DNA of 64,000 nucleotides from Gemmatales bacterium. GTDB lineage: Bacteria; Planctomycetota; Planctomycetia; Gemmatales; HRBIN36. Where the stretch lies: assembly GCA_025060195.1 (NCBI GenBank), contig JANXCQ010000003.1:722-64721 (forward strand), in the 5' to 3' direction. The notes beneath the pieces are model-generated. The model was given only the letters and a program-made list of their open reading frames with translations, made no database searches and was not told the DNA's origin. Positions 6,494-62,544 of this stretch are shown in pieces; the stretch's first letter is position 1, and the number at the start of each line of letters is the position of its first letter. Both the position numbers and the translations under genes were made by a program.

Positions 6494-6499
6494 ACCGAC

Positions 6500-8069: not shown

Positions 8070-11000
8070 TTACGGCGTGGCGCGGACCAGGCCTTTTTGC
8101 CGCAATTGCTGGGCGATGGACGACCACGGATACTTCCCCGCGAGCAATTCGTCCCAATATTTTTTGGCTTCCTTCCAAGGGACGAGTTCCCACAAATGGG
8201 CGATGGTGAGCACGACGCCGTCATCGCGGTCGGGGCGCAGCTGCAAGCGGGCGGCACGCTGCAATTTGTCGGCGAAGTCGCGCAGTTCGCTGAGCAAGTC
8301 TTGCTGGCGTTCCAGGTCGCGGTCCAGCCGCTTACTGACGTTGCCCGCGGCCTGGGCCTTTTGTTGTTGCAAGGCGGCGAGGCGATTTTCCTCCCGGCGG
8401 ATTTTCGGTTCGACGTAATGCAGCCTCGCTTTAAACAGCAGGTCCTCGTCGAGCTGGTGATAGTAAAGCCACAGGGCGAAGTTCCCTTTAGAAGATTGTA
8501 GCAGCCAGTAAATCGGGGCTTTGCGTCGGCTTTTGGAATAGCGGGCGAGGTGGTCGTGCCAGAAACCGCCCGGGCCGGCGCGACGGAAATATTCCCGCAG
8601 GTCGCGCACGCCCAGGGCGCGGCAGGCTTCCTGTTCGACCTGTTCGGCGGCGTCGCCCCAGAGCAGGTCAAAGACGTCGCGGACGCGGCGGACGATGTCG
8701 TCGGTATGTTCGGGGTCGTCCACCAGGATGCCGTTCCACTGAATGGCCAGCGGATAGCCGGGCGGTGTTTCGCTCAACGGCAGACCGTCTTCTCCCTGGA
8801 GCATCCCCGGCGGACACACCGGCAGCGGGTCAAACGGATCGGGCAACGGCGGCGCTGCTTTCTCCCCCGTCGCATACCGCACATCCCACCGCCCAAACAC
8901 ACACCCCACCGCGTAAGAGATAACTTCCCGTGCTCGTTTTGCCCGATCGTCTAGCTGTTTCTCGTCGCTCGCATCGCCATTATCATCATCAAACCAGCCT
9001 TGATTATGCACGGCGACAGTTATGGACAAAGCTTCCAATTGAGCTCGCTCTTGCTCGTTCAAGCCGTAGGCTTCGTAAATAATGTCGTCAATCAGTTGGG
9101 ACGGCTTACTCGGGGGCTCAGGACGAGTTTGGTAGGAGGTAAACTCGTGTGCAGTCTCGTCGTAGTTTTTGTATAGTGCGAACTTATAACACTTTTGAGC
9201 CTCCGCAACGAGAATACTCGAATACTTTCGAAGATCTGGGTAGGGGACGATTCCCAATACTCCAACTTCATAAGATTTGGCGATCATGGAAGTGCCAACA
9301 ATTAAGTCCACTAAGCAGCTAAAAGCGGATGAATTCATGAACGCTAAGGCAAGCCATAAATCCGTCTCGTTGGTGGCAAAACCGCCGCTGCCTTTGACCG
9401 AAATTATCGCTCCCGCATTGAGCACTCTCGGCCCGAACCTTTTCGAGGTGCGTTCACTCCATGTCAATCCTGGGCGAAAGTAGTAATCGGTGTTTCGAAG
9501 GCATGAATAGGGGCGTCCCGTCTCGGGGTCTCTGAAATTCCTAATTTCCTCCCCGTCGCGTTCCCAATTGATGACGAGGTGTAAGTCGGCGTAAAAGGGA
9601 CTATACTCGCCGCCCTTGGCGAAGGGCACCCAGCGTTTGCCTTCGAAGGTGCGCTGGCGGCACCATTGTTGAAAGGCCTTGAGGTCGCGGCGCCAATCGG
9701 GACCGTGGCGGGCATCGAGGATCTTCTGCGGGTCCACTTCCCACCAACAGCGAACGAAGCGAAAATCGTCGGCGGTTTGGAGCCCGACGCGCACGGTGCG
9801 GCCTTCGCTCTGGAACGGGGGCAGTTCGCGGAACAAGCGACGAATCCGCTCGGAGACCCAATAGGCGAACGGGCTGCCCGGGACCAGGCGAAATTGCTCA
9901 GGCGCCACCGGGAAGACGTCGGGGTGAGGCTGGTCGGCGAGGTAAGCGGCCCGGGCCTGGGCCAACGCCTCCGCTTTGTTCTCATGGTGCAACATGCGGA
10001 AAAACACGGTCGGCGCCGCGGACGGTGCGGCGGACGGAGTCGCTTTGGCCAAACAGTAGGCGGCAGTTTCGACCATGGCGGTGTCGAGCACGCCATAGCC
10101 CAGGTCGGCCACCACCAGGAGCCGCGCTTCCCGTAATAAAACTTCTTCCCGCCATTTCTGGAAACTGGAGAGGAAAAATCCAGTGCGGCTGGTCAGGGCG
10201 CCCAGCAGTCCGTCCGGGAGCAGACGCCGTAACGCCATTTCCACAAACGCCGCATACAGGTTATGTTTACTCCGCGGATAAGCCCGTTCCAGATAGGCCT
10301 TGAGCGCTATGGGATAGTCGCCATAGGGCGGATTCATCAGGATGACGTCGTAGCGCTGGTGGCACAATTCGACGAAAGCCAGTCCCTGGGCGGTATCCTC
10401 GGCAAAGAGCCGGCGCTGCAGACCGCGTCCGTTATCGGCCCGCTGAGCATGGGCGCGTAAGGCGGCGACGACGCGCTGCTCGGCTTGTTCAAAGAACTGG
10501 GCATCGGACAAAGCGCTCACGGCAAAGAGCCGCGGCGGCTCGGAATCCGGGGCGTCGAACATCGTCCGCTGCCACGCCCCGCCCCCCGCGAGGAATTGCC
10601 GATGCGCTTCCTGGACGGCGTCGCGGAGGTCGTCCTCGATGAGTAACAGCGGCCCCGCTTCTCCGGCCAGTTGCATCTTGTCGAACACCACTTCGACCAA
10701 CTGGCCCAACAGCTGCGGCTCCAGGCTGGCCACGAACTCGCGGAGCAACTGGCGCTCGCCCGGCATCGGTTCGGCACATACGAGATGGGAACGGGTAATC
10801 TTGGGCCGCTCGCCACTTAGGCCGAATTGCCGATACGCCCGCTGACACCGCAGCCATAACGCCAACGCCGCCACCTGAATCGCCCGCGGATCGATATCCA
10901 GGCCGTAAAGATTCTCCGCCAGGATGAGCCGGGGCAGGTCGCGATACAGCGCCGACTTGTCGGGATAGTCGCGGCGAAGAGCGGGGCCCAGGTCGGGGTC

Positions 11001-11654
11001 GTCGTGGGCCTCGTCGTAAATGTCCAACAGCAGGTCGAAGCAGTAAAGCAGGAAATGGCCGCTGCCGCACGCCGGGTCGAGGATTTTCCAGAGCCGCGGA
11101 TCCTTTTTCGGTCGCCAAGCCGACGGCGAACGGTCGGGCACGAGATAGCGGCAGCGCTCGGTCAGGCGTGTCGCCCCGTGGCGCATTTCGTACCACAATC
11201 GGCCCAGCGTGTTATCCACGAGAAACTCGACCACATAGCGGGGCGTGTAAAACTGATTGCGAAAGGCCAGTTCGTAGGCGTTGCGCGGGGCGCGACTTTC
11301 CTGGCGTGCCTGGGTGCGTAGTTCCGTGGGCGTGAAATACTGATAGACCCAGCCGAGGGTTTCGTCATGGTGCCAGACGTCGGCCAAGGCGGGGTCGTTG
11401 AGACAGGCGAGCACCTGGTCGAGAGCCCGCTGCGGCGGATACAGCCGATTGGCCGGATCGTGCGGACTGAAGAGCACGCCGATCTCTTCCGCCAGCCGCT
11501 GCGCCAGCCAGTCGAGGAAATGGCGGTAGGCGAGTTCGTGCTGGCCCGCATAAAACAGCGCGATGCGCCTCGGGATGCTCGGCGAGGTAAAGCTGAAAGC
11601 CTTCGGAATAGACGCCGCGACTGACCGCTTCGCGAAAACGCTGCCCGCCGACAT
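8070..11654 (-). CDS. pglX: BREX methyltransferase PglX (paralogue 2), main fragment downstream of a frameshift
   Basis: Family-like sequence starts around 11570 (RRIALFYAGQHELAYRHFLDWLAQ...). It carries WVYQYFTP, FYTPRYVVEFLVDNTLGRLW, the SAM motif KILDPACGSGHFLLYCF and catalytic DVILMNPPYG. The BREX-PglX C-terminus reads PIYWLLQSSKGNFALWLYYHQL...VVLTIAHLWELVPWK. Confidence 0.88.
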   Translation of the reverse strand: MSAGSVFAKRSVAASIPKAFSFTSPSIPRRIALFYAGQHELAYRHFLDWLAQRLAEEIGVLFSPHDPANRLYPPQRALDQVLACLNDPALADVWHHDETLGWVYQYFTPTELRTQARQESRAPRNAYELAFRNQFYTPRYVVEFLVDNTLGRLWYEMRHGATRLTERCRYLVPDRSPSAWRPKKDPRLWKILDPACGSGHFLLYCFDLLLDIYDEAHDDPDLGPALRRDYPDKSALYRDLPRLILAENLYGLDIDPRAIQVAALALWLRCQRAYRQFGLSGERPKITRSHLVCAEPMPGERQLLREFVASLEPQLLGQLVEVVFDKMQLAGEAGPLLLIEDDLRDAVQEAHRQFLAGGGAWQRTMFDAPDSEPPRLFAVSALSDAQFFEQAEQRVVAALRAHAQRADNGRGLQRRLFAEDTAQGLAFVELCHQRYDVILMNPPYGDYPIALKAYLERAYPRSKHNLYAAFVEMALRRLLPDGLLGALTSRTGFFLSSFQKWREEVLLREARLLVVADLGYGVLDTAMVETAAYCLAKATPSAAPSAAPTVFFRMLHHENKAEALAQARAAYLADQPHPDVFPVAPEQFRLVPGSPFAYWVSERIRRLFRELPPFQSEGRTVRVGLQTADDFRFVRCWWEVDPQKILDARHGPDWRRDLKAFQQWCRQRTFEGKRWVPFAKGGEYSPFYADLHLVINWERDGEEIRNFRDPETGRPYSCLRNTDYYFRPGLTWSERTSKRFGPRVLNAGAIISVKGSGGFATNETDLWLALAFMNSSAFSCLVDLIVGTSMIAKSYEVGVLGIVPYPDLRKYSSILVAEAQKCYKFALYKNYDETAHEFTSYQTRPEPPSKPSQLIDDIIYEAYGLNEQERAQLEALSITVAVHNQGWFDDDNGDASDEKQLDDRAKRAREVISYAVGCVFGRWDVRYATGEKAAPPLPDPFDPLPVCPPGMLQGEDGLPLSETPPGYPLAIQWNGILVDDPEHTDDIVRRVRDVFDLLWGDAAEQVEQEACRALGVRDLREYFRRAGPGGFWHDHLARYSKSRRKAPIYWLLQSSKGNFALWLYYHQLDEDLLFKARLHYVEPKIRREENRLAALQQQKAQAAGNVSKRLDRDLERQQDLLSELRDFADKLQRAARLQLRPDRDDGVVLTIAHLWELVPWKEAKKYWDELLAGKYPWSSIAQQLRQKGLVRATP

Positions 11655-11979
11655 AGACCTGGTGGACTTCCATCATCTTGTAGGCACATAAGCGGTTCAG
11701 GTGGGTGAAAGCGACTTCGCGGACGAGTTGTTCCAGGGCGTCGGCGGGAGCGAAACCGCGGGCTTGGGCATGTGCGAGGTAATCGAGCAAATCGCGGCGG
11801 GCCTGCAGTTCCTGCGGCGTCAGATGCTTGAGCCGGGCCTCCGGTTCGATATGCAGGCGGCGCGCCCGTTCCAGACGAATGCCAAAGCGGCCCTCCAGTT
11901 CCTCGCGCAGGGCCGGTTCGAGGATGCGGCGACATTGGGAGACGGCGAGCCGCAGCTGATTCCGCGTCGCCTGGTCCAT
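11365..11979 (-). CDS. pglX: PglX (paralogue 2), N-terminal fragment upstream of a frameshift; only about 11979-11575 is family-like
   Basis: The fragment reads MDQATRNQLRLAVSQCRRILEPALREELEGRFGI...VREVAFTHLNRLCAYKMMEV...EGFQLYLAEHPE. It parallels the N-terminus of paralogue 1 (...RETAFTWLNRLVAFKMLEA...NGYLLWLADH). After about 11575 the frame yields Ala/Arg/Gly-rich nonsense. Frame 0 mod 3 here versus 2 mod 3 for the main fragment. Confidence 0.8.
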   Translation of the reverse strand: MDQATRNQLRLAVSQCRRILEPALREELEGRFGIRLERARRLHIEPEARLKHLTPQELQARRDLLDYLAHAQARGFAPADALEQLVREVAFTHLNRLCAYKMMEVHQVYVGGQRFREAVSRGVYSEGFQLYLAEHPEAHRAVLCGPARTRLPPFPRLAGAAAGGRDRRALQSARSGQSAVSAAAGSRPGARLSQRPRLGRRLAP

Positions 11980-11982
11980 AGC

Positions 11983-14187
11983 CTACTCCACGATCACAGT
12001 GCATCCCTGGTCGAGATGGCGTTGCACCGTGCGGCGGAGCTGGTCGAGGAAGGCCTCGAGGTCGTGGGACGATTGGAGCCGGCGGGGTACCAGGTCGGCG
12101 AGGCGTACCCGCACCTCGCGTGTCGTCGGCGTTTCAGGCGTCAGGCATGCGCGGAGCCGTTCCAGGACCTGGTCGCGAAACCCGCGCACTGCGGCCAGGT
12201 CGGATTCCAATTGCTCTAGCGAAGTGCGTGCGGGGCGCACGCCTTGGGCGACGTCGGCACGTTCCTGGTCGCGGCCCAGACGTTCGCGGAGCGCTTGTAC
12301 CATTCGTTCGGCCTGGAGACAGTCGCGTTGGGCCAGGGCCTGGTAGTCGGCGTGGTTTTGAATGTGTTCGAGGGCCTCGCGATAGGCAGCGGCGCGGCGG
12401 TCAAACAGATCGAGAAACACGCGCTGGTACGTTTGCCAAAGCCGCTCGGTGTGCTCCTGAAGCACGTCCCATTGCTCCAGGACGCGCTCGGATTGGAGGA
12501 GGTCCTCTAACTTGCGGACGCCGGCTTGCAGCGGTGCGGCCTCGTCGCGGCGAGCCAACTGCGGCCAAATCTGCTCGACGGCCAGGCGGGCCCGCTGGAA
12601 AGTTTGTAAGTGAGCCTCGGTGAATTGGTCGCGGTAGCGCCGCAGTTCGCGGTGCAGATGCAGCAGATGTTGGCCGTGTTCGTCGAGCAGACGCACGCGG
12701 TCTTCCCCCGAGGCGTCGCTCATCCGCCGCAACAGTTGCGCGTAGTCGTCGAGCCGGCGGGCGATCGGCAGCCGGTATTGGTTGACCTGGAGGCGCAGTT
12801 GCATCAGCTGGTCGAGCGTTTCCTGAGCGAACTGCTTGGCCACGGTGGCGATGTGCGTTTCCTCGGCCCGCACTTCCTGGCCCGTGAGATGCTCCAGGAC
12901 TTGCGCCGTCTGTTTGAGCACCTGCACGTCGAGGGAGCGCCGCGGGATAAACGCGGCCTGGCGGAAATACGACGGCTTGGCAAACAGGTTCACGGCCATG
13001 GGATCGTGGGCCTCGGTGAGGCGTTGGCAGCTGGCGAGCACCTCGATTTTGCGGGCGCGGAACAACGTGGCCAGCACCAAGCGGACAATCTCGGGGTCCC
13101 AGCCATAGGGCGGTCGGCGGAAATGTTGTTCCACCTCCTTGCCCAGCAACTTCTCGCGGTTGCCGTAGCTATGTTCCGTTTCCAGGTAGCCGAGCACTTC
13201 CTTGACCAGCGGGGCCGACATGTCCAGGACGAAGTGGCCTTCTTGCTGCTTGACCAGTGCGGCCTGGGCGTCGAGCGCCCGTAACACGTGGGCGACGTCC
13301 CGCAGGTCGTGGGCCTGGAGAATCCGCTCCACCTCCGTGCCGCTGGGTTGGAACGTGGCCAGGCTCAGCTGCGGATAAATGCGGGGCACTGCGGCGGCGA
13401 GTAACCGTTTGAGCTTTTCGGAGAAACTTTTGCTCGCGGTGCCGGCGTCGTGGACCCCGCCGGGATCCTGCACGCCGCGAAACATCCCGCTCCCCTGGCT
13501 TAGCGCTTCGCTCAACTTGGTGCGCAGTTGCTGGGCCAGGTTATCCAGACGGTTCTTTTCCTCCTGGAGCAAGGCGGCTTCGACCGGGCTGAGTTGCTTC
13601 TGCGCCCGTTGTTCTTCGTAGGTTTGCACCATGCGCTGCGAGGCGTAATATTCGGCGATGAGGCGATCGATCTCCGGCGTCAGGCAGAAGACCCAGAAGA
13701 CGGCCTGTTCACGGGCGCGCTCGCGGCTTTCTTGGCGGACTTCCTCGACGCGGGTACTGAAGGCGTCGAGGTCGTCGGCCACGGCCAGGTGCAGTTCCAG
13801 TTCCCCTTCCTCGAGGAGCGGCGTATCCTCCAGCTGCACGCGGAGACGGAAGCTCCGCAGGTTCTGATAGCGATACGTTTTCAGCTCCGGTTCGCTGAAG
13901 ATGTCGCGGAGGAAGTTGCGTAACACTTCCCGCCGGTCGCGTTGCCGGGGTTCGAGATATTCCGCGCGTTTCCGTTCCCAGGTTTTTTCCTGAGCGGTCT
14001 GGAGTTTCCATCCTTCGTCGGTCTGGCGGATGAACTGGCCCTGGCTCAGGCGTTGCAGCGCCGCCTCGACTTCGCGCGCGGGCTTATTCTGCCCCACAGC
14101 ATCCACGAGGAAGGCCGCGATATTGGCAGCGGTCCGGGGAAGGTCGCGGACGAACTCCAACAGACAGATCACCTTGGCCACGCGCAA
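11983..14187 (-). CDS. brxC: BrxC (PglY-like ATPase), C-terminal fragment downstream of an in-frame TAG
   Basis: This 734-aa fragment is in the same frame as 14257-15666 (both 0 mod 3). Reading across the stop gives ...VYDLVEDNLS*ERRHDLDQIRERLSLDPQDQGWSLRVAKVICLLEFVRDLPRT.... It is a long helical region typical of the BrxC C-terminal half. Its stop lies 3 nt before the pglX start. Confidence 0.82.
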   Translation of the reverse strand: MRVAKVICLLEFVRDLPRTAANIAAFLVDAVGQNKPAREVEAALQRLSQGQFIRQTDEGWKLQTAQEKTWERKRAEYLEPRQRDRREVLRNFLRDIFSEPELKTYRYQNLRSFRLRVQLEDTPLLEEGELELHLAVADDLDAFSTRVEEVRQESRERAREQAVFWVFCLTPEIDRLIAEYYASQRMVQTYEEQRAQKQLSPVEAALLQEEKNRLDNLAQQLRTKLSEALSQGSGMFRGVQDPGGVHDAGTASKSFSEKLKRLLAAAVPRIYPQLSLATFQPSGTEVERILQAHDLRDVAHVLRALDAQAALVKQQEGHFVLDMSAPLVKEVLGYLETEHSYGNREKLLGKEVEQHFRRPPYGWDPEIVRLVLATLFRARKIEVLASCQRLTEAHDPMAVNLFAKPSYFRQAAFIPRRSLDVQVLKQTAQVLEHLTGQEVRAEETHIATVAKQFAQETLDQLMQLRLQVNQYRLPIARRLDDYAQLLRRMSDASGEDRVRLLDEHGQHLLHLHRELRRYRDQFTEAHLQTFQRARLAVEQIWPQLARRDEAAPLQAGVRKLEDLLQSERVLEQWDVLQEHTERLWQTYQRVFLDLFDRRAAAYREALEHIQNHADYQALAQRDCLQAERMVQALRERLGRDQERADVAQGVRPARTSLEQLESDLAAVRGFRDQVLERLRACLTPETPTTREVRVRLADLVPRRLQSSHDLEAFLDQLRRTVQRHLDQGCTVIVE

Positions 14188-14256
14188 CGACCAGCCCTGA
14201 TCCTGCGGGTCGAGGCTGAGCCGTTCCCGAATCTGATCCAGGTCGTGCCGACGTTC

Positions 14257-15666
14257 CTACGAAAGGTTGTCTTCGACCAGGTCGTACACCTTGTCGAGCG
14301 TGACCAGCGCGCCGATGGGCTTTTGGGCGTAGTTGGTGCGTTCGTGCACGAGCATTTCGTAGGTTTGTTTGATGATGGTGCGGTTACTGCCGCCCAGGTG
14401 CCGCGATTCGCCCAACTGTTGCCGCAATCCCGACATGATGCTGATGCACAGATCAATGTAATGCGGTGGATAGGGATAAAAGTGGGCGAACTCATCGGCG
14501 CTGAGATGGGTGTGCCGCGTGGTGCGTTCCAGGCTCAGCGCCTCATGGAGCACGCCTTCATGCTGGCGGAACAGCTCGCGCAACAGATGCTCCCCCTCGG
14601 GTTTCTTGGCCAGCACTCGTTTCGACGCCACTTCGCGAATGTCCGAAGGCGGCAAGTCCACGCGGATGCTGAAGCGGTCTTGCAACTTGGCCAATTCGAC
14701 CCGCCGCGCATCTAACGACGACACCACCTCGTCGAGCTTCTCCTGCGAGGTCACGATGATCCAGCACGGGGCGGGAATTTTGCCTTGTTTGACGAGATTT
14801 CTGCCCACCCGGCCAAACTCTTCAACGGTGGCGCGGAGGTCTTCGATTCTCTCCTCGCTGGTGGCGACGTGTTGGCCCACTTCGTCAATGATGAACACCA
14901 AAGCCTGTCCGGGGCGGCGCCGGCCCCATAACTCAAAAGTCCGTTGCACGATCTTACTGACCGAAAGCGGTTCGCGGCGTTGGCCGTGGACTTGGGCCCA
15001 GGAATCGGCCGTGGGGTACGTTTTCGGATCGAGCCGATGCAGGATGCTGCTGGTGCGGGCCAGGCGTTGCGCCCCTTTGCGGACGCGGCGCCACGGTTGC
15101 TGGTGCAACTCCAGACACAGCTGCTCCAACTCGGCCAGGCGACCTTCCGCTTCCAGTTCGATTTCCAGTTCGGCGAGGTCGAAATCCTCGGCGTAATCGA
15201 GTTCGCGGAGCAACACACGGTACATGATTTCCGCGATGCGTTGCGTCGCCAGGCGGGTGTCGCGTTCCTTGGCCACGTCGAAGAAGATCACCCCCGTACG
15301 CCACCGGGCATGGATATTATCCAACAGGTCGGCCAGTTCCGGGTCGTCCATGCGCTCTTTGAACCACTCGGCAAAGGGGCGCCCGCGGATGCGGGGATTG
15401 TGCAGAGCGTAGCCGAGATTCTTGACGAACGAGCTTTTGCCCGAGCCGAAGAAGCCCGAAACCCACACGCCGATCCCTTCGCGCAGTTCGCTCGGCGCCT
15501 CGGCCATGGCCCCGAGCAATTGCCGATAGTGCGCTCGGATACTCGGCGTGGCCACATACTCCATGATTTCCTGATAGACCGACTCCTCATCGGCCTGATC
15601 CACTTGGATGATTTCCTGGATTTTGCGAGACAGGTCGCGGGCGATGATTTCGCCGATGGTCTTCAT
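14257..15666 (-). CDS. brxC: BrxC (PglY-like P-loop ATPase), N-terminal fragment, ending at an in-frame TAG (14257-14259)
   Basis: The true start is the ATG at 15666 (MKTIGEIIARDLSRKIQEIIQVDQADEESVYQEIMEYVATPSIRAHY...). Walker A is GFFGSGKSSF. Its ATG overlaps the TGA of the upstream gene (ATGA at 15663-15666). The 721-aa ORF-track entry 14257..16422 is an artefactual upstream extension. Confidence 0.85.
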   Translation of the reverse strand: MKTIGEIIARDLSRKIQEIIQVDQADEESVYQEIMEYVATPSIRAHYRQLLGAMAEAPSELREGIGVWVSGFFGSGKSSFVKNLGYALHNPRIRGRPFAEWFKERMDDPELADLLDNIHARWRTGVIFFDVAKERDTRLATQRIAEIMYRVLLRELDYAEDFDLAELEIELEAEGRLAELEQLCLELHQQPWRRVRKGAQRLARTSSILHRLDPKTYPTADSWAQVHGQRREPLSVSKIVQRTFELWGRRRPGQALVFIIDEVGQHVATSEERIEDLRATVEEFGRVGRNLVKQGKIPAPCWIIVTSQEKLDEVVSSLDARRVELAKLQDRFSIRVDLPPSDIREVASKRVLAKKPEGEHLLRELFRQHEGVLHEALSLERTTRHTHLSADEFAHFYPYPPHYIDLCISIMSGLRQQLGESRHLGGSNRTIIKQTYEMLVHERTNYAQKPIGALVTLDKVYDLVEDNLS

Positions 15667-16646
15667 GCGGACAACCCCCGATGCAGTTGCCGACTCAGGC
15701 TCGACCATGAATAGTGTCCCTGGAGCAGTTGCTGCCAATATTTTTTGGCGTCGGGGAAGGGCACCAGTTCCCACAGCGGTGCCAGGTTCAGCGCCACGCC
15801 GTCGTTGATATCCGGCACCAGGCGCAGTTCCGCGACGCGCCGCAGCTTCTGCTGAAAGTCGCGCAGTTCTTCGAGGCGTTCCAGTTGGTTTTCGATGTCC
15901 TGGGCGAGTCGTTTGGCTTCGCGGGGCAGTCGGGAGCGGCTCTCGCGGGGCGGCAGCGTTGTGGTGCTGCCAGCGCTGGCGCTGCCGGCGTGCGACGCCT
16001 GCCACGCCGCAAAACGGGCCCGCAGTTCGGCCAAGCGCTTTTCTTCCCAGCGGCACCGCGGTTCCACCACCTTGTGCAGCACCTTGAAGAGCGTGTCCTG
16101 GTCGTAGCGTCGGGCAAAGAGCCACACGCCGAAGTTTTTCCGCCCCGACAGCAGCAACCAGTAGATCGGGCGCTTGCGATATTGCGACAGAGGGCGTTTG
16201 AAAAACGGCAGGGCCAGGTCGTCGGCCAGACGGTCGAGCACCGGACCCGGGCCACACGCCTCCGTGACTATAACTTCCGCCGCGGCTTCGCCGTGACGCC
16301 CTTCCAGGACGCGCCACACCGCTTCGGCCAGGGGACGACCCGCTTCGCAAAAGGCTTCCGCTTCCAGGACGCGGCCGACGGCCCAACTGAGCCACGCCTG
16401 GGCCAAACGCGTCCGGGTCCACGCCGCGGGAGGCGCCTCCGCTTCCTCGCTCGGTTCGTCCTCGGGCTCGGCGTCGTCATCGGCCGCGGGACGCGCCGCT
16501 AATTCCGCCTCGATGGCCCGACGGTCGCTCTCCGAGATGCCGTAGAGCCGATACACTTCCTCGTCGATTTCCCATTCGATTTCCGCCAACTGGCGATGGC
16601 GCTCGGCCACACGCTCCACGCCGTCAGGCCAAGCCGGCGGTTCCAC
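15663..16646 (-). CDS. PglX-like methyltransferase (paralogue 1, pglX'), C-terminal fragment after an in-frame TAG
   Basis: The fragment contains ...EWEIDEEVYRLYGISESDRRAIEAEL...PIYWLLLSGRKNFGVWLFARRYDQDTLFKVLHKVVEP...INDGVALNLAPLWELVPFPDAKKYW. This matches the PglX paralogue 2 C-terminus block for block. It shares the frame (2 mod 3) with 16680-17114 and 17163-19448. Confidence 0.85.
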   Translation of the reverse strand: MEPPAWPDGVERVAERHRQLAEIEWEIDEEVYRLYGISESDRRAIEAELAARPAADDDAEPEDEPSEEAEAPPAAWTRTRLAQAWLSWAVGRVLEAEAFCEAGRPLAEAVWRVLEGRHGEAAAEVIVTEACGPGPVLDRLADDLALPFFKRPLSQYRKRPIYWLLLSGRKNFGVWLFARRYDQDTLFKVLHKVVEPRCRWEEKRLAELRARFAAWQASHAGSASAGSTTTLPPRESRSRLPREAKRLAQDIENQLERLEELRDFQQKLRRVAELRLVPDINDGVALNLAPLWELVPFPDAKKYWQQLLQGHYSWSSLSRQLHRGLSA

Positions 16647-16679
16647 GAAATCCCACGTCGTTTCGTCCTCCCGACTATC

Positions 16680-17114
16680 CTACTTCGCTAACTCAATCGC
16701 TTGCTCCACCAAACGCTCCAGCTTCTCGCTCGACTGCTGCGGTATCGGCAACCGCGATAGATCCCCGACTTGAGTATTTACTGTCGGATTAACCAAGGTG
16801 ATCAGGTGATAGAACATACTGCTATTCATGACACCAAGTATTTGTGGAACATTGTCGGCAAATAGCCCTGCAGTTGCGTCGGCAAAAATAAAGCCCTCGG
16901 GCATCAGTCTAGCACTGAATCGGCTCGAGCTGACCTTGGGACACGTGATGCCGCGGCGGAAGTAGTGTTCCGTGTTCCTAACTACCCATTCCCACTTTCC
17001 GTCTAGGTATGAATAACGTTCGCAAACATAAGCTTTGATTTCGGCGCCGTCGTTTTCCCAATTCACGACATATTCCTGATTGCCATACCATCGGCGAAAC
17101 CTGCCACCTTTCAT
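16680..17114 (-). CDS. PglX-like methyltransferase (paralogue 1), middle fragment between an in-frame TGA and an in-frame TAG
   Basis: MKGGRFRRWYGNQEYVVNWENDGAEIKAY...NTEHYFRRGITC... aligns with paralogue 2 FAKGGEYSPFYADLHLVINWERDGEEIRNF...NTDYYFRPGLTW. It ends at the TAG at 16680-16682. Confidence 0.85.
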   Translation of the reverse strand: MKGGRFRRWYGNQEYVVNWENDGAEIKAYVCERYSYLDGKWEWVVRNTEHYFRRGITCPKVSSSRFSARLMPEGFIFADATAGLFADNVPQILGVMNSSMFYHLITLVNPTVNTQVGDLSRLPIPQQSSEKLERLVEQAIELAK

Positions 17115-17162
17115 GTAGGGGAACCAGCGTTTTTTCGACTGTTTGGCTTCCTCGGCGTTTTT

Positions 17163-19448
17163 TCAGTCGAAGGCGATCCGCTCTTTGCCCACCTCCCACC
17201 AGAATCGGACGAAGCGGAAGTTATCTGCCGTGGTTAACCCCGGCCGCACTGCGGCCACGTCGCCGAGTTTGGGTAAGGTCTGGAACAGGCGCCGCAGGCC
17301 GGGCGTGATCCAATACACCCAAGGACTGCCGGGAATGGCGTCGAAGTCGGCTTGACGATAACGGAACACGGCGGGGTCTAGGGCGCTGGCCTCGCTCGTG
17401 GGCGGAGCGCTGGCGCCGCTCGTAGCGGCTTGGAACGCCTGACGTAACGCGGCGAGGGCCCGTTCCAGGCGCTGGCGTTTGCTTGGCGCATCGGGTTCCT
17501 TGACCAGTCGAAAATACGTCGCGACCGCCTCGGCCCGCCGCCGCTCATCGCTCTCCTTCCGCAGCACGAGCAACGCCGTATTCACCTTCGCGCCCGCGAT
17601 TTCCTCAAACGCTTCCGTTCCGAGATGGGCTAAGGTTTCGATCACGTGTTCTTGCAGCAATTGCTGCCGCAGCCGTTCGTAACTGGAAATGAACATGAAC
17701 GATTGTTGCGTCACCATGCCGAGCCGACCGCCATCTGAGAGTAGTTGCGAACCGCGGAGCAGAAAAGCCGCATAAATGTCCGTCTTTCCCTCGGGGTAAT
17801 GTTTGGCTAAGAGGTCTTTGATCACGGGGTCGAGATTCCACGCTGTGCTATAGGGCGGATTGGTAACGACCACGTCGTAGGTCTGATCTAACAGTTGGAG
17901 CAAGCGCAGGCCTTGGACGGTCTCGCCGGCAAAGAAAGTCTGGGGGATGCCCCGTGCGTCCTGGTCGCGGGCCAATTGGTCGAGGGCGTGGCGAATCTGG
18001 GCCAGGAGCGTGTCCCAAAAGTGACGCCGCGCCGCTTCCGAGCCGAATTGTTCCCGACTCCAGCCGAATAAATCGGGGTTGCGACCCGCGCGCTCGTAGC
18101 GTTGGCGTTCTTCCTCGACCAGGGCGCGAATCCGCCGCTCCAACGGCAGCAACGAGCCCAAATACTGCGACCGCTGAAGTTCTTCCTGCAACGCGGTGAG
18201 AATCCTTTGGTAGATGGGCCGCTCGCCCAGTCCTGCCTGACGCAGGAACGTGGCTAACCGCTCGCCGTCGAGCATGTGCACGTTGGCGCAGGCTAACCGC
18301 GATTCGCGGAGCGTCCGCCCGGGAGCCAGCGTCTTGGCCTTGAGATAAAGCGCCAAAGCGGCGATCTGCACCGCCCGCAGGTCAATATCAATGCCGTGAA
18401 GATTTTGCTCCAGAATCGCCGCGGGGATGTCCTCGGGATGGTCCACCGGAGGCTGCGCCGGCCAGCCCGGTTGACCCGCCCGCGCCATTTCTTCCTGGTA
18501 CATCTCCACAAACAGGTCGAACGCCACTAACCCGAAATGCATGGTACCGCACGCGGGATCGAGTAATTTGATTTCCCGCACGCTGCGAATCGGCCGTTTC
18601 AATTCCGCAGGGGTGAGCGCCTCGGGAAGCAGATAGTCCAACTTGGAGCGCAAATTGGAATCGGGATGAAGTTGGAGCCATAAGCGACCCAACGTGTTGT
18701 GCACCAGGAAACGCACCATCCACCGCGGCGTGAAAATCTGCGTGGCCGCGGGTAAATCCTCGGCGGAGATTTTGCGTTTGTGCTTGTAAAGTTGCTCAAA
18801 GATGTGGGCCTTCTCCTCTTCGACGAAAAACTGATAGACCCAGCCGAGGGTTTCCTCATTGCCGGGCTGCCAGGCTTCGGCGAGTTGGGGTTGGTTGAGG
18901 GCGTGGGCCACCTCGCGGAGCACGGCCAAGGGGGGTGCGAAGCGGGAAGCCAGATTATCCGGGTCAAACAACACGCGAATCTCCCGAGCGAGCTGACGGC
19001 AGCAGTCGAGGAGGAAACGTAAGTAAGCAGCGTCGCGCGATTCGCCCCCGCGTTGATGCTGGAGCCAGGCGTCGCGATGGTCGGCCAGCCACAGCAGATA
19101 CCCGTTGGAGTGATCCCAGCGGGAAATGGTTTCGCGGAGCCAGCGCCGGGCCTCGAGCATCTTGAACGCGACCAGGCGGTTGAGCCAGGTGAAGGCCGTC
19201 TCCCGCAGAAATTGCCGATACGCCTGCCGCGGGGTCAGGCCGCAACGCTGCAGGTCGTCGAAATGCTTGAGCAAGGCAGCGCGTAAGGAGCGACCTTCGT
19301 CGTCGAGATGCCGCAGCGGGGCGTTGGGATCGGCCACCAGTTGGCCCGACTTTTCGTAGAGGTCGTACTGGCCTTCCAGAAGCTCCGCGACGGCGCGTTC
19401 CAACCGGGCGCGGGCGTCGAGTGCCAGTCGGCGAAGCAGTTGCCGCAC
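17163..19448 (-). CDS. PglX-like N6-adenine methyltransferase (paralogue 1), N-terminal and catalytic fragment, ending at an in-frame TGA (17163-17165)
   Basis: The fragment carries WVYQFFVEEE, IFTPRWMVRFLVHNTLGRLW, the SAM motif KLLDPACGTMHFGLVAF and catalytic DVVVTNPPYS, and ends ...ADNFRFVRFWWEVGKERIAFD*. The start is uncertain. I propose the GTG at 19448, the first start codon after the brxB stop at 19466, aligned with the paralogue 2 N-terminus. The ORF-track extension to 19928 overlaps brxB and is not credible. Confidence 0.82.
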   Translation of the reverse strand: MRQLLRRLALDARARLERAVAELLEGQYDLYEKSGQLVADPNAPLRHLDDEGRSLRAALLKHFDDLQRCGLTPRQAYRQFLRETAFTWLNRLVAFKMLEARRWLRETISRWDHSNGYLLWLADHRDAWLQHQRGGESRDAAYLRFLLDCCRQLAREIRVLFDPDNLASRFAPPLAVLREVAHALNQPQLAEAWQPGNEETLGWVYQFFVEEEKAHIFEQLYKHKRKISAEDLPAATQIFTPRWMVRFLVHNTLGRLWLQLHPDSNLRSKLDYLLPEALTPAELKRPIRSVREIKLLDPACGTMHFGLVAFDLFVEMYQEEMARAGQPGWPAQPPVDHPEDIPAAILEQNLHGIDIDLRAVQIAALALYLKAKTLAPGRTLRESRLACANVHMLDGERLATFLRQAGLGERPIYQRILTALQEELQRSQYLGSLLPLERRIRALVEEERQRYERAGRNPDLFGWSREQFGSEAARRHFWDTLLAQIRHALDQLARDQDARGIPQTFFAGETVQGLRLLQLLDQTYDVVVTNPPYSTAWNLDPVIKDLLAKHYPEGKTDIYAAFLLRGSQLLSDGGRLGMVTQQSFMFISSYERLRQQLLQEHVIETLAHLGTEAFEEIAGAKVNTALLVLRKESDERRRAEAVATYFRLVKEPDAPSKRQRLERALAALRQAFQAATSGASAPPTSEASALDPAVFRYRQADFDAIPGSPWVYWITPGLRRLFQTLPKLGDVAAVRPGLTTADNFRFVRFWWEVGKERIAFD

Positions 19449-19465
19449 TTGCGCGTCCCTGAGCG

Positions 19466-20053
19466 TTACCCGTAGATTTTCACGCGATAATTGCCCCAGG
19501 CCAGGCGGTCTTTCAGGTTCATGAGGCGCAGTCCAAAAGTGCCTTCGCGGGAACCGGGGTAGAACAAGACGGTGGGCACCTGCGTGCGGCCGTGGAGTTC
19601 GTCGAGCAACTTCGACACGGGATACAGCCCGGGCGCCAACGCCGCGACGCGGGTCAGAAACACAATGTCGCGGGCAGGATGCAGACCACTGTAGTGGCTG
19701 AGCACTAAGTCGGCCAACGGACACCAATCGCGATCCGAGAGATAACAGGTCACCTGCTCCTGGGCTGGGAGAAAGCCCCATTGGCGTTCCAATTGCACCA
19801 GGGCATCGAGTCCCTCGGACTGGGCGATGGCCTGCCAGAGCAAATCGGACATCCGCACCACGTGCACGGTTTTCTGCGCCGCTTCCAGGCGCGTCTGGAG
19901 CAACCGGAGTTCGCGCCGCAGCTGCCATTCCTCGCTCGGATCGTAGCGCAGAATGGCAAAGGGGAGATCGTGACAGACAGCAATCCGCGGAGGCACCGCT
20001 TTCAGGTCATCTTCCAGGAGCTTGAGCCGCTCGCTCAACGAGGACATGGGCAT
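19466..20053 (-). CDS. brxB: BREX protein BrxB (DUF1788 family)
   Basis: The intact 195-aa ORF has ...PFAILRYDPSEEWQLRRELRLL...VLFYPGSREGTFGLRLMNL...GNYRVKIYG, the typical size and C-terminal YPG...NYR signature of DUF1788. It is the second gene of the operon. Confidence 0.8.
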   Translation of the reverse strand: MPMSSLSERLKLLEDDLKAVPPRIAVCHDLPFAILRYDPSEEWQLRRELRLLQTRLEAAQKTVHVVRMSDLLWQAIAQSEGLDALVQLERQWGFLPAQEQVTCYLSDRDWCPLADLVLSHYSGLHPARDIVFLTRVAALAPGLYPVSKLLDELHGRTQVPTVLFYPGSREGTFGLRLMNLKDRLAWGNYRVKIYG

Positions 20054-20843
20054 ATTCCTCCAGGCTCGTCGCGGGGAACGTCAGACGCACGACACTGCCC
20101 GCGGCGTAATATTCGAGATAGCCTTCCTGATGGGCGGCAAAGAAGGCCCGTTCCACCGCATCGGGCGTCAGGAAAAACAGTTGCCAATCGGGCCGCCGTA
20201 CCAGCTGCGCCACAGCGCGATGCCGCTGGTGCAGGTAATAGGCGATGTAGGCAAAAGCCGCCAAAGGTAAATACGCCGGTTGCAGCCGTTTCTTGTTCAC
20301 CCCCTGCAGTATGCCGAAATCGCGGAGCGCCGCTAACAGTCCTTGGGCGACGCGGCGCAACGTGTATTCCGACCAGGGCCGCACCATTCGCCCCTGAGCG
20401 ACCCAGGCACGCAGCGGGCCAAGCAAATCACCCACGCTCACCTCGACCAGGCCGCATTGCGCCTGCGGTAACAGCACATGACGCACCACGTCGGCGACTA
20501 AGGGGTCGGCCTGAGCGGTGTGGAAAAACAAAATGCGGTCGAGCGCCGTCGCGGGGAGCCTCCCTTGCACCAGGATCACCAGAGCCGGCAAGACCGACGG
20601 TTCGACCAAATAGCGTTGGCGAAACACGCTCAGGATGTGCCGCAGCCGTGCCCGCGACGATTTGCCCAGCCAGTTTTGCCGCAGCACGCATTCCAGATTG
20701 GCTTGCGGACTTCGCGTCTTGTCCCAGTGCAACAGGATCGCTTTGGTCTCGGCGAGCAAGGAGCCGGCCTTGATGATTTTGCACGAATACGGCCTTTGGG
20801 CATCCTCGTGGGCGCGACGGCGCCGAGAGACTCGTGGCGGCAT
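20007..20843 (-). CDS. brxA: BREX protein BrxA (DUF1819 family)
   Basis: I chose the ATG at 20843 (MPPRVSRRRRAHEDAQRPYSCKIIKAGSLLAETKAILLHWD...), with GGAGG about 15 nt upstream. The DUF1819-like pattern includes ...PWSEYTLRRVAQGLLAALRDFGIL.... The gene overlaps brxB by 47 nt. The longer ORF-track version (to 21125) is an upstream extension. Confidence 0.72.
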   Translation of the reverse strand: MPPRVSRRRRAHEDAQRPYSCKIIKAGSLLAETKAILLHWDKTRSPQANLECVLRQNWLGKSSRARLRHILSVFRQRYLVEPSVLPALVILVQGRLPATALDRILFFHTAQADPLVADVVRHVLLPQAQCGLVEVSVGDLLGPLRAWVAQGRMVRPWSEYTLRRVAQGLLAALRDFGILQGVNKKRLQPAYLPLAAFAYIAYYLHQRHRAVAQLVRRPDWQLFFLTPDAVERAFFAAHQEGYLEYYAAGSVVRLTFPATSLEEYAHVLVERAAQAPGR

Positions 20844-21087
20844 GGTCGCTTCGACTTTGTACCTCCAAGGAAACCGCGCAGGCGAGTCGGGGCAAGCCAG
20901 TTCGCCATACCTGCGGGGATAGGACGTTCTACGGAGAAAACGCGGTGCGGAGCAGAGCCTGCTGTCGCGATGTTCCCGACTAGCGCGACGCGGCGGAAAC
21001 ATTATTATCGACGTCCATACTGCAGGCCTGTCCCACGCCGCGGCTTGCGCGTTCCGCCCAAGCAGCCAGCGAAGTGTTTCCGATCCG

Positions 21088-22410
21088 GTGGAGCATACAA
21101 TGGAGCGGAAGTCGGAGTGCGCCATGAGCGAACGAGTGGCCGTTGCCCTGGATTATGGACAAACGCAGGCACGGTTCTGGGTGTCGGAAGAGTGCCTGAC
21201 GCGCCCGATGCCACCGTGGCCGCAAGCGAACGAACTCAGCGACGTCCGCGCCGCAGTGCGGCAAGCGCTGGAGTCGCCCATCGATTTTCCGCCCCTGCGG
21301 CAAGCGCTGACGCCCGACGACGCGCTGGCCATCGTCGTCCACGAGCAATACCGTAGCCTGCCCGATTTGCTGGTGCCCTTGCTGGAACACGTCGAGCAAG
21401 CGGGGGTCTCGTTGGAGCGCGTAACGTTGCTCTGTCCGCCCCGTCTGCCGGAGGTGGCACCACCGCCGTGGCGCGAGGAATTGCCCGAGAAATGCGCGGC
21501 AATTCGTGTCGAGGAACATGAGCCGACTAACCGCGCCCGACTTTGTTACTTAGCCGGCACACGGGCAGGGCGCCGGTTGTACCTGAATCGCACTCTGGTG
21601 GAAGCGGATCAGGTGATCGTGGTCGGCCCCGCTTGTTACGATCCGGTGATGGGCTACGGAGGTGGCCGCGCCGCTTTGTTCCCCGCGTTAGCCGACGAAA
21701 CAGTGCGTCGGGAGTTTGCCCGCGGATTAGTCGAGGGACCTCCCACGATTCGGGGTAATCGTCGCCTGGAGGAATCGGGCGAAGTAAGTTGGCTGCTGGG
21801 CGTACCGTTCTGGCTGGCAGCCATCCCAGGTCGCGGCGACCGAGTTCACGCCGTCTTGGCGGGTCCCGAGGGTAGTATCGCTCCCCGCGTTTGGCAAATG
21901 CTGGAATCAGTCCAACAATATCGCTTCGCTTACCGGGCCGAAGTCGTCGTCACCGCGCTCAGTGGCGAACCGCGTTGGCTCAGTTTCGACGATTTGACCC
22001 GCGCGTTGGCCGCGGCCGCACGAGTGGTGCAACCAGGCGGCAAAATCATCGCGCTGGCTCCCATCAACGCGGCCACGCTCGGCCCCGCGGCCAGGCAATT
22101 GGGTCAATTCGACGACTTAGTCACGTTGCTAGCCCAGGCACGCCGCGACTATCTGGCCGATTGGCAAAGCATCTGGCACCTGGCTGTGGCTCAACGCCGC
22201 GCCAGTCTGTTTGTCTATGGTTCGTTGCCCGAAGAACTGGTGCTACAGATGCATGCCACGCCCATCCGTTCTCTCGAGGAAATCCAACGCATTCTCGACC
22301 ACTGTGAGTCGTGCATTTTTCTGCCGGACGGTCACCGTTCTAACCCGATCATCATGGGTACTAGGTCTGCTTACAGCCAGGCCGACCCTGACCGGACGAC
22401 AACCTCCTGA
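21088..22410 (+). CDS. LarA-like (lactate racemase N-terminal domain, DUF2088) protein
   Basis: The 440-aa ORF has ...DDALAIVVHEQYRSLPDLLVPLLEHVEQAGVSLERVTLL...GPACYDPVMGYGGG..., the DUF2088/LarA fold pattern. The start is ambiguous, with ATGs at 21088, 21100 and 21124. It is divergent from brxA. Confidence 0.55.
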   Translation: MEHTMERKSECAMSERVAVALDYGQTQARFWVSEECLTRPMPPWPQANELSDVRAAVRQALESPIDFPPLRQALTPDDALAIVVHEQYRSLPDLLVPLLEHVEQAGVSLERVTLLCPPRLPEVAPPPWREELPEKCAAIRVEEHEPTNRARLCYLAGTRAGRRLYLNRTLVEADQVIVVGPACYDPVMGYGGGRAALFPALADETVRREFARGLVEGPPTIRGNRRLEESGEVSWLLGVPFWLAAIPGRGDRVHAVLAGPEGSIAPRVWQMLESVQQYRFAYRAEVVVTALSGEPRWLSFDDLTRALAAAARVVQPGGKIIALAPINAATLGPAARQLGQFDDLVTLLAQARRDYLADWQSIWHLAVAQRRASLFVYGSLPEELVLQMHATPIRSLEEIQRILDHCESCIFLPDGHRSNPIIMGTRSAYSQADPDRTTTS

Positions 22411-22569
22411 GCGACAATGGTTAAATTCGATGCCCGCCCGTTGACTACGTCACGGACTCTTCCCACAATTATTAACAAGACTAACACCGGGTTTTCACTT
22501 AGCATAACCAATAGCAGCGTCGGGCTATGACTTCATAACCCCGACTCATCACCATCAGGGGGAATAACG

Positions 22570-23397
22570 ATGTTGGGGACCTTCACGCGCCTAAGTCGGA
22601 TCGGGCACCTAGGGCTGGTGTGCGTAGTTTGGCTCATGACCACGTCCCTCGTCTCGGCCGCGGAAGGCGAGTCGGGAGCCGATCTGGCCAGCTCCATCAT
22701 TCACTTCCTTTTTACCTCGGTTACGGGATATGTGCTGATCGGTATTTACTTCTTCTTCGTAGGCATGATGGTGTGGTTGCTCATGGACGTGCGCGGCGGC
22801 GCCATGATGCCGCCTGACCTGGTGGAAGCGATCGAAGACGGGATCGCCAAGCGGCAGTTCCGCCAAGCCTTCGAGACGGTCAAGGCAGAAAACTCGTTTT
22901 TCGCCCGGGTGATGACCGCAGGGATGGCCCGCTTGCAGCACGGTCTGGAAGAAGCGCGCGATGCTGTGCACGCCATGCTCGATAACCTCCGCTCGAAGAA
23001 AAAAGGCTTGGTGGGTTATATTGCCATCGTGGGTACGTTAGGTCCCCTCATCGGTCTGGTCGGTACGGTATCGGGAATGATTCAGAGTTTCGCGGAACTC
23101 GGCCGGGGCGGCACACCTGACCCCGCCAAGTTAGCCGACGGTATTTCGCACGCGCTCAACGCCACGCTGGTGGGTATCTTCCTATCATGCTTGGCTATCC
23201 CTGCGTACACATTCTTCAATAACCGTCTAGATCGCATCATCAACGACATAAGCCTGATGGCCGATGACCTGCTGGTGCAGATGTATTTCGCCAGCCGACA
23301 AGCTGGTGCGCCAGCGCGTCCTGGTGCCCCCGCTTCCGCGGATCAACGACCTGCCGAAGCGGCCGCTGTCCAGGCACAGCCGCGAACTCAGAGCTGA
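22570..23397 (+). CDS. MotA/TolQ/ExbB proton-channel family protein
   Basis: The 275-aa ORF has multiple TM segments and the motif IAIVGTLGPLIGLVGTVSGMIQSFAEL, typical of ExbB/TolQ. Confidence 0.8.
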   Translation: MLGTFTRLSRIGHLGLVCVVWLMTTSLVSAAEGESGADLASSIIHFLFTSVTGYVLIGIYFFFVGMMVWLLMDVRGGAMMPPDLVEAIEDGIAKRQFRQAFETVKAENSFFARVMTAGMARLQHGLEEARDAVHAMLDNLRSKKKGLVGYIAIVGTLGPLIGLVGTVSGMIQSFAELGRGGTPDPAKLADGISHALNATLVGIFLSCLAIPAYTFFNNRLDRIINDISLMADDLLVQMYFASRQAGAPARPGAPASADQRPAEAAAVQAQPRTQS

Positions 23398-23458
23398 AGC
23401 CCAGGCCCTTCCTTCAGCGTCGAACGCGGGTTAGCTTGAGTAGTAAGGAGCACGATCG

Positions 23459-24220
23459 ATGGCCGCTGCTGTCGGTTCCGAAGAACGCTTGGAACTGAAC
23501 CTGACCCCGTTGCTCGACGTCGTCCTGCAACTGATTATGTTCTTTATGATGTGCGTGAACTTCGTCATGGATCAGGTCGACCCCAATGTGCAGCTGCCTT
23601 CTTCCGTGTCGGCTCGCGAGTTACAGCCAAAGACCGATATTCAGGTGATCGTGATCAACATGGAAGTAGTCCGCAAAGATGTGATCGGCCCCGATGGTTT
23701 GCCCAAGCGGGACCCGAAAACCGGGCGCGTCGAACGCATGCCCATCACGCCGCGAACGACCAAAGTTTCCATTCTGACCTACCGCCAACGCAGCGAGGGC
23801 CGAATGACGGAAGAAGAGCGCCGCAACCTCGATCCGAAGATCGTCTTCCTGGTAGAGCAAGCCACTGATACCGATCTGCAAAATGTCAGCGAATATCTGC
23901 TAAGCATCGGCTATTTGCCTAAGGATAATCATCAACGACCCGAACCCGACCAGATCAAAGTGTTGCCCGAAGGTAGTGGCATGGTGGTAGCGCAGCGTTT
24001 CTTGGCGAACATCGCTCGGGCCATCGAAGTTACCGACCCGAAAAAAGTTACCAAGCTGGAAGGGGGCCGACGGATCATTGACGTACCCGTGATTTTGCGT
24101 GCCGACCGCGATGCACTCTATGGCACGGTTGTTCACCTGATCGCCCAGTGCAATTTCGAGGGTTTTAAGAAAGTGGATCTGCGAGCCACTATCCAGCAAC
24201 AAAAGCCGGATGGTGGCTAG
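23459..24220 (+). CDS. ExbD/TolR-like biopolymer transport protein, with a long periplasmic insertion
   Basis: The N-terminal LNLTPLLDVVLQLIMFFMM is an ExbD-type TM helix. At 253 aa it is clearly longer than my recollection of typical ExbD (about 130-150 aa). Confidence 0.65.
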   Translation: MAAAVGSEERLELNLTPLLDVVLQLIMFFMMCVNFVMDQVDPNVQLPSSVSARELQPKTDIQVIVINMEVVRKDVIGPDGLPKRDPKTGRVERMPITPRTTKVSILTYRQRSEGRMTEEERRNLDPKIVFLVEQATDTDLQNVSEYLLSIGYLPKDNHQRPEPDQIKVLPEGSGMVVAQRFLANIARAIEVTDPKKVTKLEGGRRIIDVPVILRADRDALYGTVVHLIAQCNFEGFKKVDLRATIQQQKPDGG

Positions 24221-61554: not shown

Positions 61555-62544
61555 ATGTCTGCGGAGCGGCCTGACCAAACGCGCGTTCCCGATGCGCTCC
61601 TGGCAAGTGTTTCCAGCGCTATTGCTCGCTCTGACACCGAAGCGTCGCAGGCATCGCCAGCCGAGGATCGCATTGCGGCTCCCGCTCGCGATAATTGTGG
61701 GGCCAGGGAAGGCGGTAAGCCTCAGGCGAAGCAGGTCGGCGTCTTGTCTGAGAGATTGCCAAGCGAAGCCGCTCGGACGAGCGCGCCAACGCCCGCGCAG
61801 CAGGAGCCTGGGCCCGTGCCAGCGCGGCGATGGTGGTTACTGCTACTTCTGGGTTTGACATTTCTTCTCTTGAGCGTAGTGATATTCCCCCTAGTTTGGC
61901 TCATGGTCTCTGGCAGAGCAGATTTGGCACGCGCAATTTCTGCTGATGATGCTTACGAGCCGGGCTGGCGTTATCGCGACTTGGTCGCTTCCATTAGGCT
62001 GGTGCCTGAAGCCGAAAACGGTTGGCCCGTTGTCGAAGGACTAGCGCGCTCTTGGCCACCACCTCCGAACGTGCGCTTAACAAAATCTTCTGAGTGGCTG
62101 AAAGAAATCTATGGGATTCATTGGCATGGAGGGCTCCCGCTGCCTGGCTACCTAAGTGCATTTCCTTCAGCCATAGTCGCCAGTGGGCGTTGTGTATGGC
62201 ACGAGCGTTTGCCCACGGATGTCGCGAAGGAGTTGGAAGAAATCATGGCCGCTGCCCCGCACGTTTGGCCGGCCCTGCAATATTTGTCTCACTTTCCTGG
62301 GCTACAATGCCCCGTACCCGGTAGTGTCCCAGAAATTGACGCTCATCCCAGACTCTCACCTGCCAATCATTTGGGAATCGCCTTTTGTCTGGCGGTCTTG
62401 TGCCTGGAATGGCACCTGCAACACGGTCGCTTTCAGGATGCAGAGCGCTGTCTGCATGTGTTATGCCTCATGGAGTCAGCGTATTGCGATCGGGCGTTTT
62501 GCCTTCCTTGGCGTAATTGGTCTGAATTTTGGGCCGTACCTTGA
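61555..62544 (+). CDS. Hypothetical membrane-anchored protein
   Basis: The 329-aa ORF has a TM (WWLLLLLGLTFLLLSVVIFPLVWLMV). No family recognised. It ends at a TGA that is in frame with the next ORF. Confidence 0.4.
   Translation: MSAERPDQTRVPDALLASVSSAIARSDTEASQASPAEDRIAAPARDNCGAREGGKPQAKQVGVLSERLPSEAARTSAPTPAQQEPGPVPARRWWLLLLLGLTFLLLSVVIFPLVWLMVSGRADLARAISADDAYEPGWRYRDLVASIRLVPEAENGWPVVEGLARSWPPPPNVRLTKSSEWLKEIYGIHWHGGLPLPGYLSAFPSAIVASGRCVWHERLPTDVAKELEEIMAAAPHVWPALQYLSHFPGLQCPVPGSVPEIDAHPRLSPANHLGIAFCLAVLCLEWHLQHGRFQDAERCLHVLCLMESAYCDRAFCLPWRNWSEFWAVP

Follow-up and report, generated by a model that had tools for sequence, protein, structure and literature searches.

The closest described counterparts of the gene considered here are the PglX (BrxX) methyltransferases of type 1 bacteriophage exclusion (BREX) systems, which are captured by the NCBIfam profile NF033452 and represented structurally by the Salmonella (8c45) and E. 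coli (9ewz) proteins. A BREX-1 PglX is a single uninterrupted open reading frame (ORF) of about 1200 aa, and in the Salmonella protein the target-recognition domain occupies residues 662-849 and the spacer helices residues 850-960 (PMC11341690). Two methyltransferases of this kind in one locus are described from the type V BREX of Haloarcula hispanica, where BrxX1 and BrxX2 each have a motif that they methylate and full defence depends on both (bioRxiv 10.64898/2026.04.28.721311). Here we analyse a BREX type 1 operon with two pglX genes, found on the minus strand of a 64,000-nucleotide stretch of a Gemmatales bacterium genome (assembly GCA_025060195.1, contig JANXCQ010000003.1, positions 722 to 64,721), which we will call the window. 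One of the two genes, pglX-a, contains a TGA and a TAG within its reading frame, and the evidence presented below makes it very probable that it is a recently inactivated pseudogene within a decaying operon.

The pglX-a frame starts with GTG at position 19448 and runs to a natural TGA at 15663-15665, which overlaps the ATG of brxC (ATGA). Translation of the minus strand of 15663-19928 confirmed the claim of the original prediction, made from the sequence alone, that a TGA and a TAG cut this PglX into three ORFs: the first junction reads FVRFWWEVGKERIAFD before the stop and KNAEEAKQSKKRWFPYMKGGRFRRWYG after it, and the second reads LERLVEQAIELAK before and DSREDETTWDFVEPPAWPDGVERV after. All the pieces are in one frame, as had also been claimed, so the protein can be continued without a change of frame, and homology carries on in frame past both stops. 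The three pieces match NF033452 collinearly, at profile positions 1-721, 725-881 and 1082-1209 of 1210, and at the junctions only the stop codons themselves interrupt the match, with no other loss there. Piece 1 by itself scores 529 bits against this profile, for which the curated cut-off is 500. It holds the gamma-class N6-adenine methyltransferase motifs LDPACGTMHFG (motif I, binding S-adenosylmethionine) and VVTNPPYS (the NPPY motif), along with Pfam matches to Eco57I, N6_Mtase and MmeI_Mtase, the first two wholly within the piece, which bears out the prediction that the catalytic motifs lie only in the first fragment. The operon partners expected of BREX type 1, brxA, brxB, brxC, pglZ and brxL, are all present.

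What do relatives carry at the two stop positions? In a search of 5.8 billion proteins the nearest full-length relatives of PglX-a are 57-67% identical, and no intact allele above 67% identity was found there. The homologues (48-67% identical) are all single ORFs of about 1210-1350 aa. The TGA column is cysteine in nearly all of the 39 aligned homologues (IAFGC[KR]); among about 50 PglX genes of other genomes the codon is TGC in 13, TGT in 11, a codon for another residue in about 20 (Ala, Phe, Ser and Val among them) and TGA in none, and the closest homologues have TGC. In the closest homologues the TAG column lies in ELAKQDSREDETTWDF and is glutamine, encoded by CAA or CAG in the nearest of these genes and replaced by other sense codons elsewhere, so that a stop is found in this genome only. 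Since homologues carry Cys and Gln sense codons at these columns, both stops are one-step nonsense substitutions, TGC to TGA and, if the ancestor had CAG, CAG to TAG.

Both stops are genuine and not assembly errors. A protein annotated as PglX in a metagenome-assembled genome (MAG) of a Gemmatales bacterium has the same sequence as piece 1, and contig JAVQSM010000001.1 of MAG GCA_033581835.1 matches the entire window at 100% identity. Two Logan assemblies, built from runs SRR15826899 and SRR15826900, show 5 and 7 single-nucleotide polymorphisms (SNPs) respectively relative to the window, with zero indels and no SNP at a stop. Gene calls are alike in both Logan assemblies, with pglX-a called as 761, 144 and 327 aa, brxC as 483 plus 729-732 aa and the first part of pglZ as 510 aa. 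Thus three assemblies, one MAG from NCBI and two from Logan, agree at every lesion of the operon while differing at 10 other SNP positions.

The damage extends over the whole operon (Table 1), which the original prediction had overlooked. In total there are four nonsense codons, of all three stop kinds, and one frameshift, spread over all four large genes. The broken brxC is 55% and 51% identical, over its full length, to intact BrxC proteins of 1222 and 1221 aa, and every other genome has a sense codon at its TAG column, the nearest relatives having AAC (Asn). The TAA column of pglZ is glutamate (GAA or GAG) in relatives. In the second methyltransferase gene, pglX-b, a 1-nt insertion puts the N-terminal ~138 codons (11979..~11562) in another frame; dropping one base from catcgcGctg restores EAHRLFYAGQ, to be compared with DDERLFTSGQ in a relative, and the gene product is 59% identical to the intact second PglX, of 1310 aa, on the metagenome contig L004 (below). 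The prediction had aligned pglX-a piece by piece with this paralogue and suggested pairwise alignment with it and with other PglX proteins as a check. The collinear alignment stands, at 33-46% identity, and other homologues have sense codons at both stops, but the paralogue, which had been treated as uninterrupted, is itself frameshifted. The three smaller genes, brxA, brxB and brxL, match their domain models over the full length. The absence of lesions from the small genes is unsurprising, as these comprise 1148 codons against 4681 in the large ones (p about 0.33 by our own calculation).

Table 1. Positions in the window of the BREX operon, of the parts of pglX-a and of the selenocysteine genes
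Feature	Position	Strand	Description
brxA	20007-20843	-	intact; Pfam BrxA 2-180/184; 278-aa gene call
brxB	19466-20047	-	intact; Pfam BrxB
pglX-a	15663-19448	-	interrupted by in-frame TGA and TAG (below)
pglX-a piece 1	17166-19448	-	761 codons; N-terminal helical bundle, N6-adenine methyltransferase core, start of recognition domain
in-frame TGA, codon 762	17163-17165	-	nonsense change from Cys TGC/TGT
pglX-a piece 2	16683-17162	-	160 codons; rest of target-recognition domain
in-frame TAG, codon 923	16680-16682	-	nonsense change from Gln CAG
pglX-a piece 3	15663-16679	-	338 codons and natural TGA stop; spacer helices, C-terminal region
brxC	11983-15666	-	in-frame TAG 14257-14259
pglX-b (second PglX)	8070-11979	-	+1 frameshift, 1-nt insertion near 11560
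pglZ	5441-8032	-	in-frame TAA 6500-6502
brxL	3398-5431	-	intact; Pfam BrxL_N 1-131/132, BrxL_ATPase 1-313/313, Lon_C
selB (selenocysteine-specific elongation factor)	43078-45021	+	separate complete gene, adjoins selA
selA (selenocysteine synthase)	45028-46455	+	separate complete gene

Three general causes of such a set of lesions were considered and rejected. A changed genetic code does not apply, as TGA, TAG and TAA each terminate full-length genes within the window. A single mutational signature is not shared by the nonsense changes, which would be C to A, C to T, G to T and one left unresolved, that in brxC, where AAC to TAG would take two steps. Phase variation at the pglX-b frameshift was discarded since catcgcGctg is neither a homopolymer nor a repeat tract.

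In pglX-a, then, the stops stand at columns where every homologue has a sense codon, they recur in all three assemblies, and they are accompanied by lesions in neighbouring genes. In the scenario that we propose, two independent single-base substitutions would have interrupted pglX-a at codons 762 and 923, and the operon would be decaying as a whole, with one break each in brxC, pglZ and pglX-b and with brxA, brxB and brxL still whole. Such a locus would no longer methylate or defend. The several lesions may represent neutral decay after a first knock-out, or they may have been partly selected if incomplete BREX sets are harmful. Selection of a part of the multi-hit pattern is conceivable because in E. 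coli the removal of brxZ or brxL led to secondary frameshifts elsewhere among the brx genes (PMC6326788).

The distribution of substitutions gives an indication of age. PglX-a has 39 private changes at columns invariant across nine intact homologues, and per invariant column these amount to 30/338 in piece 1, 2/51 in piece 2 and 6/117 in piece 3, that is, there is no excess 3' of the stops. Since private substitutions are no denser downstream of the stops, the pattern argues for a recent lesion, and it argues against piece 1 having been kept by selection while the remainder decays. Among the three assemblies 5 SNPs are nonsynonymous and 4 synonymous, and segregating derived replacements are found at conserved sites (R959W and P1081S in pglX-a, G466D in brxC). 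This is the pattern to be expected of sequence drifting without constraint, although the numbers are small.

Some observations do not sit easily with a decaying pseudogene. The 39 private changes only slightly exceed the 30 and 21 seen in two intact homologues of similar divergence, so that the lesions are recent but long-term relaxation of constraint is not demonstrated. For bacterial pseudogenes, four nonsense codons to one indel is a ratio somewhat out of the ordinary, tiny as the numbers are. The Logan assemblies may also share a site or study with the MAG, in which case their agreement excludes assembler error but not a variant fixed locally.

Could the truncated methyltransferase still work? 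The original prediction had proposed that a core lacking the C-terminal recognition and helical region might be made. The first half of this idea holds, as the 761-aa product may be translated because brxA, brxB and the start of pglX-a are intact, while its functional half finds no support. Residues 12-160 of piece 2 align to residues 723-868 of Salmonella PglX (8c45_A), which places the TGA at about Salmonella residue 711, some 50 residues into the recognition domain and not at a domain boundary, and the TAG at about residue 869, early in the spacer helices. Activity of the 761-aa product would thus be improbable, because most of the recognition domain is gone and there is no functional BrxC or PglZ. 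The purified N-terminal domain of PglX, though soluble, shows no binding to DNA or to Ocr (PMC11341690). In E. coli, BrxX by itself does not methylate, and both methylation and defence are lost on deletion of brxB, brxC or brxZ (PMC6326788). At most, then, an N-terminal PglX fragment ending in the recognition domain would be produced, with no working BrxC or PglZ to act with.

We have also considered whether the three pieces might be a genuine multi-gene PglX, each made as its own polypeptide and joining the others in a working enzyme. PglX proteins split in nature do exist, and the one of Brevibacterium casei is divided after the variable region (PMC9881135), near the position of our TAG; in addition, gene callers find an ATG at 17114 and a GTG at 16646 downstream of the stops. 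However, these first starts lie 16 and 11 codons downstream, and their use would delete the conserved KRWFPY and DSREDETTWDF. Each junction consists of a lone in-frame codon with no spacer, direct reading shows no suitably spaced Shine-Dalgarno-like sequence upstream of either start, and the TGA falls within the fold of the recognition domain instead of a linker. The original prediction had named homologues of three-gene architecture, with their own ribosome-binding sites, as a finding that would refute it; all homologues are single ORFs here, none being split at codon 762 or 923. We consider such an assembly very unlikely.

Programmed read-through or recoding, yielding some full-length PglX-a at a low level, might make use of a leaky UGA-A, of UAG-G or of the A AAA AAC run. 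Among bacterial stop codons UGA is the leakiest, and the unbroken frame and homology beyond both stops are what read-through would require. The sequence C TGA AAA AAC, to which the original prediction had drawn attention as slippery-looking, is indeed present, but shifting frame at A AAA AAC would take translation out of the homologous frame. The run itself encodes Lys-Asn, a pair found also in homologues P0002, P0005 and P0008, and was made longer by the change of TGC to TGA; it is incidental, with no apparent recoding role. Further, neither stop is conserved in any relative, the structure downstream is no greater than in shuffled sequences, and as two different stops must both be passed the yields would multiply. 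A suppressor tRNA was looked for and rejected, since the window holds zero tRNA genes. With the partner genes broken as well, we regard recoding as a highly improbable explanation.

Selenocysteine at codon 762 would make pglX-a a gene for a PglX with selenocysteine in place of cysteine. The column is cysteine in most homologues, and the window encodes both SelB and SelA, 26 kb away; these adjacent genes mean that the organism can make selenoproteins. Within the window selC and selD were not seen, and there is no tRNA-Sec gene there. No hairpin resembling a selenocysteine insertion sequence follows the UGA: the 60 nt after it fold at -5.9 kcal/mol, more weakly than shuffles (z = +1.04), the 81-nt fold has z = +0.48, and there is no Rfam match near the stop. 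TGA is absent from this column in the PglX genes of other genomes, where the cysteine is often replaced, TGC to TGA is a one-step nonsense path, a TAG stands at a Gln column 160 codons on, and the operon is broken elsewhere too. If selenocysteine were incorporated, the product would be a fragment of 922 residues, still truncated by the TAG, and the first selenoprotein in a phage-defence methyltransferase, but we find this extremely improbable. Sequencing, assembly or binning artefacts, which come to mind since the source is a metagenome-assembled genome, have next to no probability in view of the agreement of the three assemblies described above and of the implausibility of stop-making substitution errors at five places in one operon.

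The gene pglX-a belongs to a larger pattern. The original prediction had called it an extra paralogue, a label that does not fit, as the copy is a conserved member of a layout with two PglX genes. Gene order in the window is brxA-brxB-pglX-brxC-pglX-pglZ-brxL. The closest relative (P0001, 67% identical) is encoded on a metagenome contig, L004, where positions 8565-23672 carry brxA-brxB-pglX (1223 aa)-brxC (1222 aa)-...-pglX (1310 aa)-...-pglZ, all intact. Because this intact relative keeps the gene order, pglX-a can be taken as part of a recurring layout and not as a stray duplicate. In a scan with one genome per species, the arrangement pglX-brxC-pglX was found also in contigs of Chloroflexota, Anaerolineae and Sedimenticola (two-PglX loci besides L004 are L017, L026, L045 and L059), several further contigs start brxA-brxB-pglX, and about 40 others have the canonical order. 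The upstream and downstream proteins fall into two separate types, which are conserved by position and share about 30-33% identity with each other. From these comparisons the window appears to hold a decayed instance of a two-methyltransferase BREX-1 layout that recurs in unrelated phyla. No description of a type 1 BREX with two PglX proteins was found in the literature searched, only the type V system of Haloarcula and cases of shufflon or split PglX.

In L004 a gene of the 23S-rRNA-IVP family and a PhD/PIN toxin-antitoxin pair are found among the BREX core genes (17378-17755 and 21800-22422), and both are absent from the locus in the window. Some relatives with canonical order (L006 at 13139-14454, L015 at 12898-13334 and L038 at 12877-13640) show, in or just after pglX, 0.4-0.8 kb gaps or a C-terminal segment that is repeated, which suggests insertions or duplicated C-terminal cassettes.

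Elsewhere in the window, two ORFs of unknown function on the plus strand (61555-62544 and 62548-63291) share one frame, with a single TGA between them (62542-62544). Homologues were found only for the last ~65 residues, in proteins of 509-638 aa. These ORFs may belong to one gene that contains the TGA in frame, either another pseudogene or one with a selenocysteine codon, or they may be two genes. As a control for stops in other places of the window, the two subunits of pyruvate:ferredoxin oxidoreductase are separate complete genes, as are SelB and SelA.

In all likelihood the locus is a defence system that died recently. For annotation, a single flagged pglX pseudogene should replace the separate coding-sequence calls of 761, 144 and 327 aa, and censuses of defence systems should count the whole BREX locus of this Gemmatales genome as non-functional, with no BREX methylation motif expected. 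It would add a further natural example of a costly defence system lost via several independent lesions. The stops are a new instance of an already known phenomenon, and the two-PglX layout and the hinge-split PglX described below are more interesting than the stops themselves; the two-methyltransferase layout, being intact in relatives, could be studied there.

How does the locus compare with known systems, then? With BREX-1 PglX/BrxX it shares the collinear profile match, the methyltransferase motifs, the recognition domain, spacer helices and C-terminal region, as well as the operon partners. It differs in that pglX-a is interrupted by two nonsense codons and sits between brxB and brxC, not after brxC, the usual position being taken by the second, 33%-identical PglX. 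The type V BREX of Haloarcula hispanica is similar in having two divergent PglX-type methyltransferases in one locus, whereas ours has the type 1 gene set, with brxL and a single brxC, and both its methyltransferase copies are disabled.

Naturally split PglX proteins, as in the BREX-1 of Brevibacterium casei (PMC9881135) and in the hinge-split loci L041 and L045, resemble pglX-a in that PglX is distributed over more than one ORF. However, the ORFs of natural splits start at codons of their own and are set apart, at domain borders, by spacers or inserted genes, while the junctions of pglX-a are single nonsense codons that are sense in all relatives. Among the relatives that are split, the division falls at residues ~650-678, with inserted genes between the halves. 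Such hinge-split loci are found in L041 (6676-12803) and L045 (10001-16132), also in L036, L057 and L059 and in the second copy of L017. The halves are separated by other defence genes, in L041 by one for a protein with Schlafen AlbA_2, HATPase_c_4 and winged helix-turn-helix domains (8663-10336) and in L045 by one for a GmrSD protein (11967-14177).

The closest parallel to the lesions as a set is provided by E. coli BREX plasmids with secondary inactivation (PMC6326788), in which several independent disabling mutations likewise fall across different brx genes. There, however, the changes were frameshifting deletions arising in the laboratory, while in the window four nonsense codons and one 1-nt insertion are found in a natural population.

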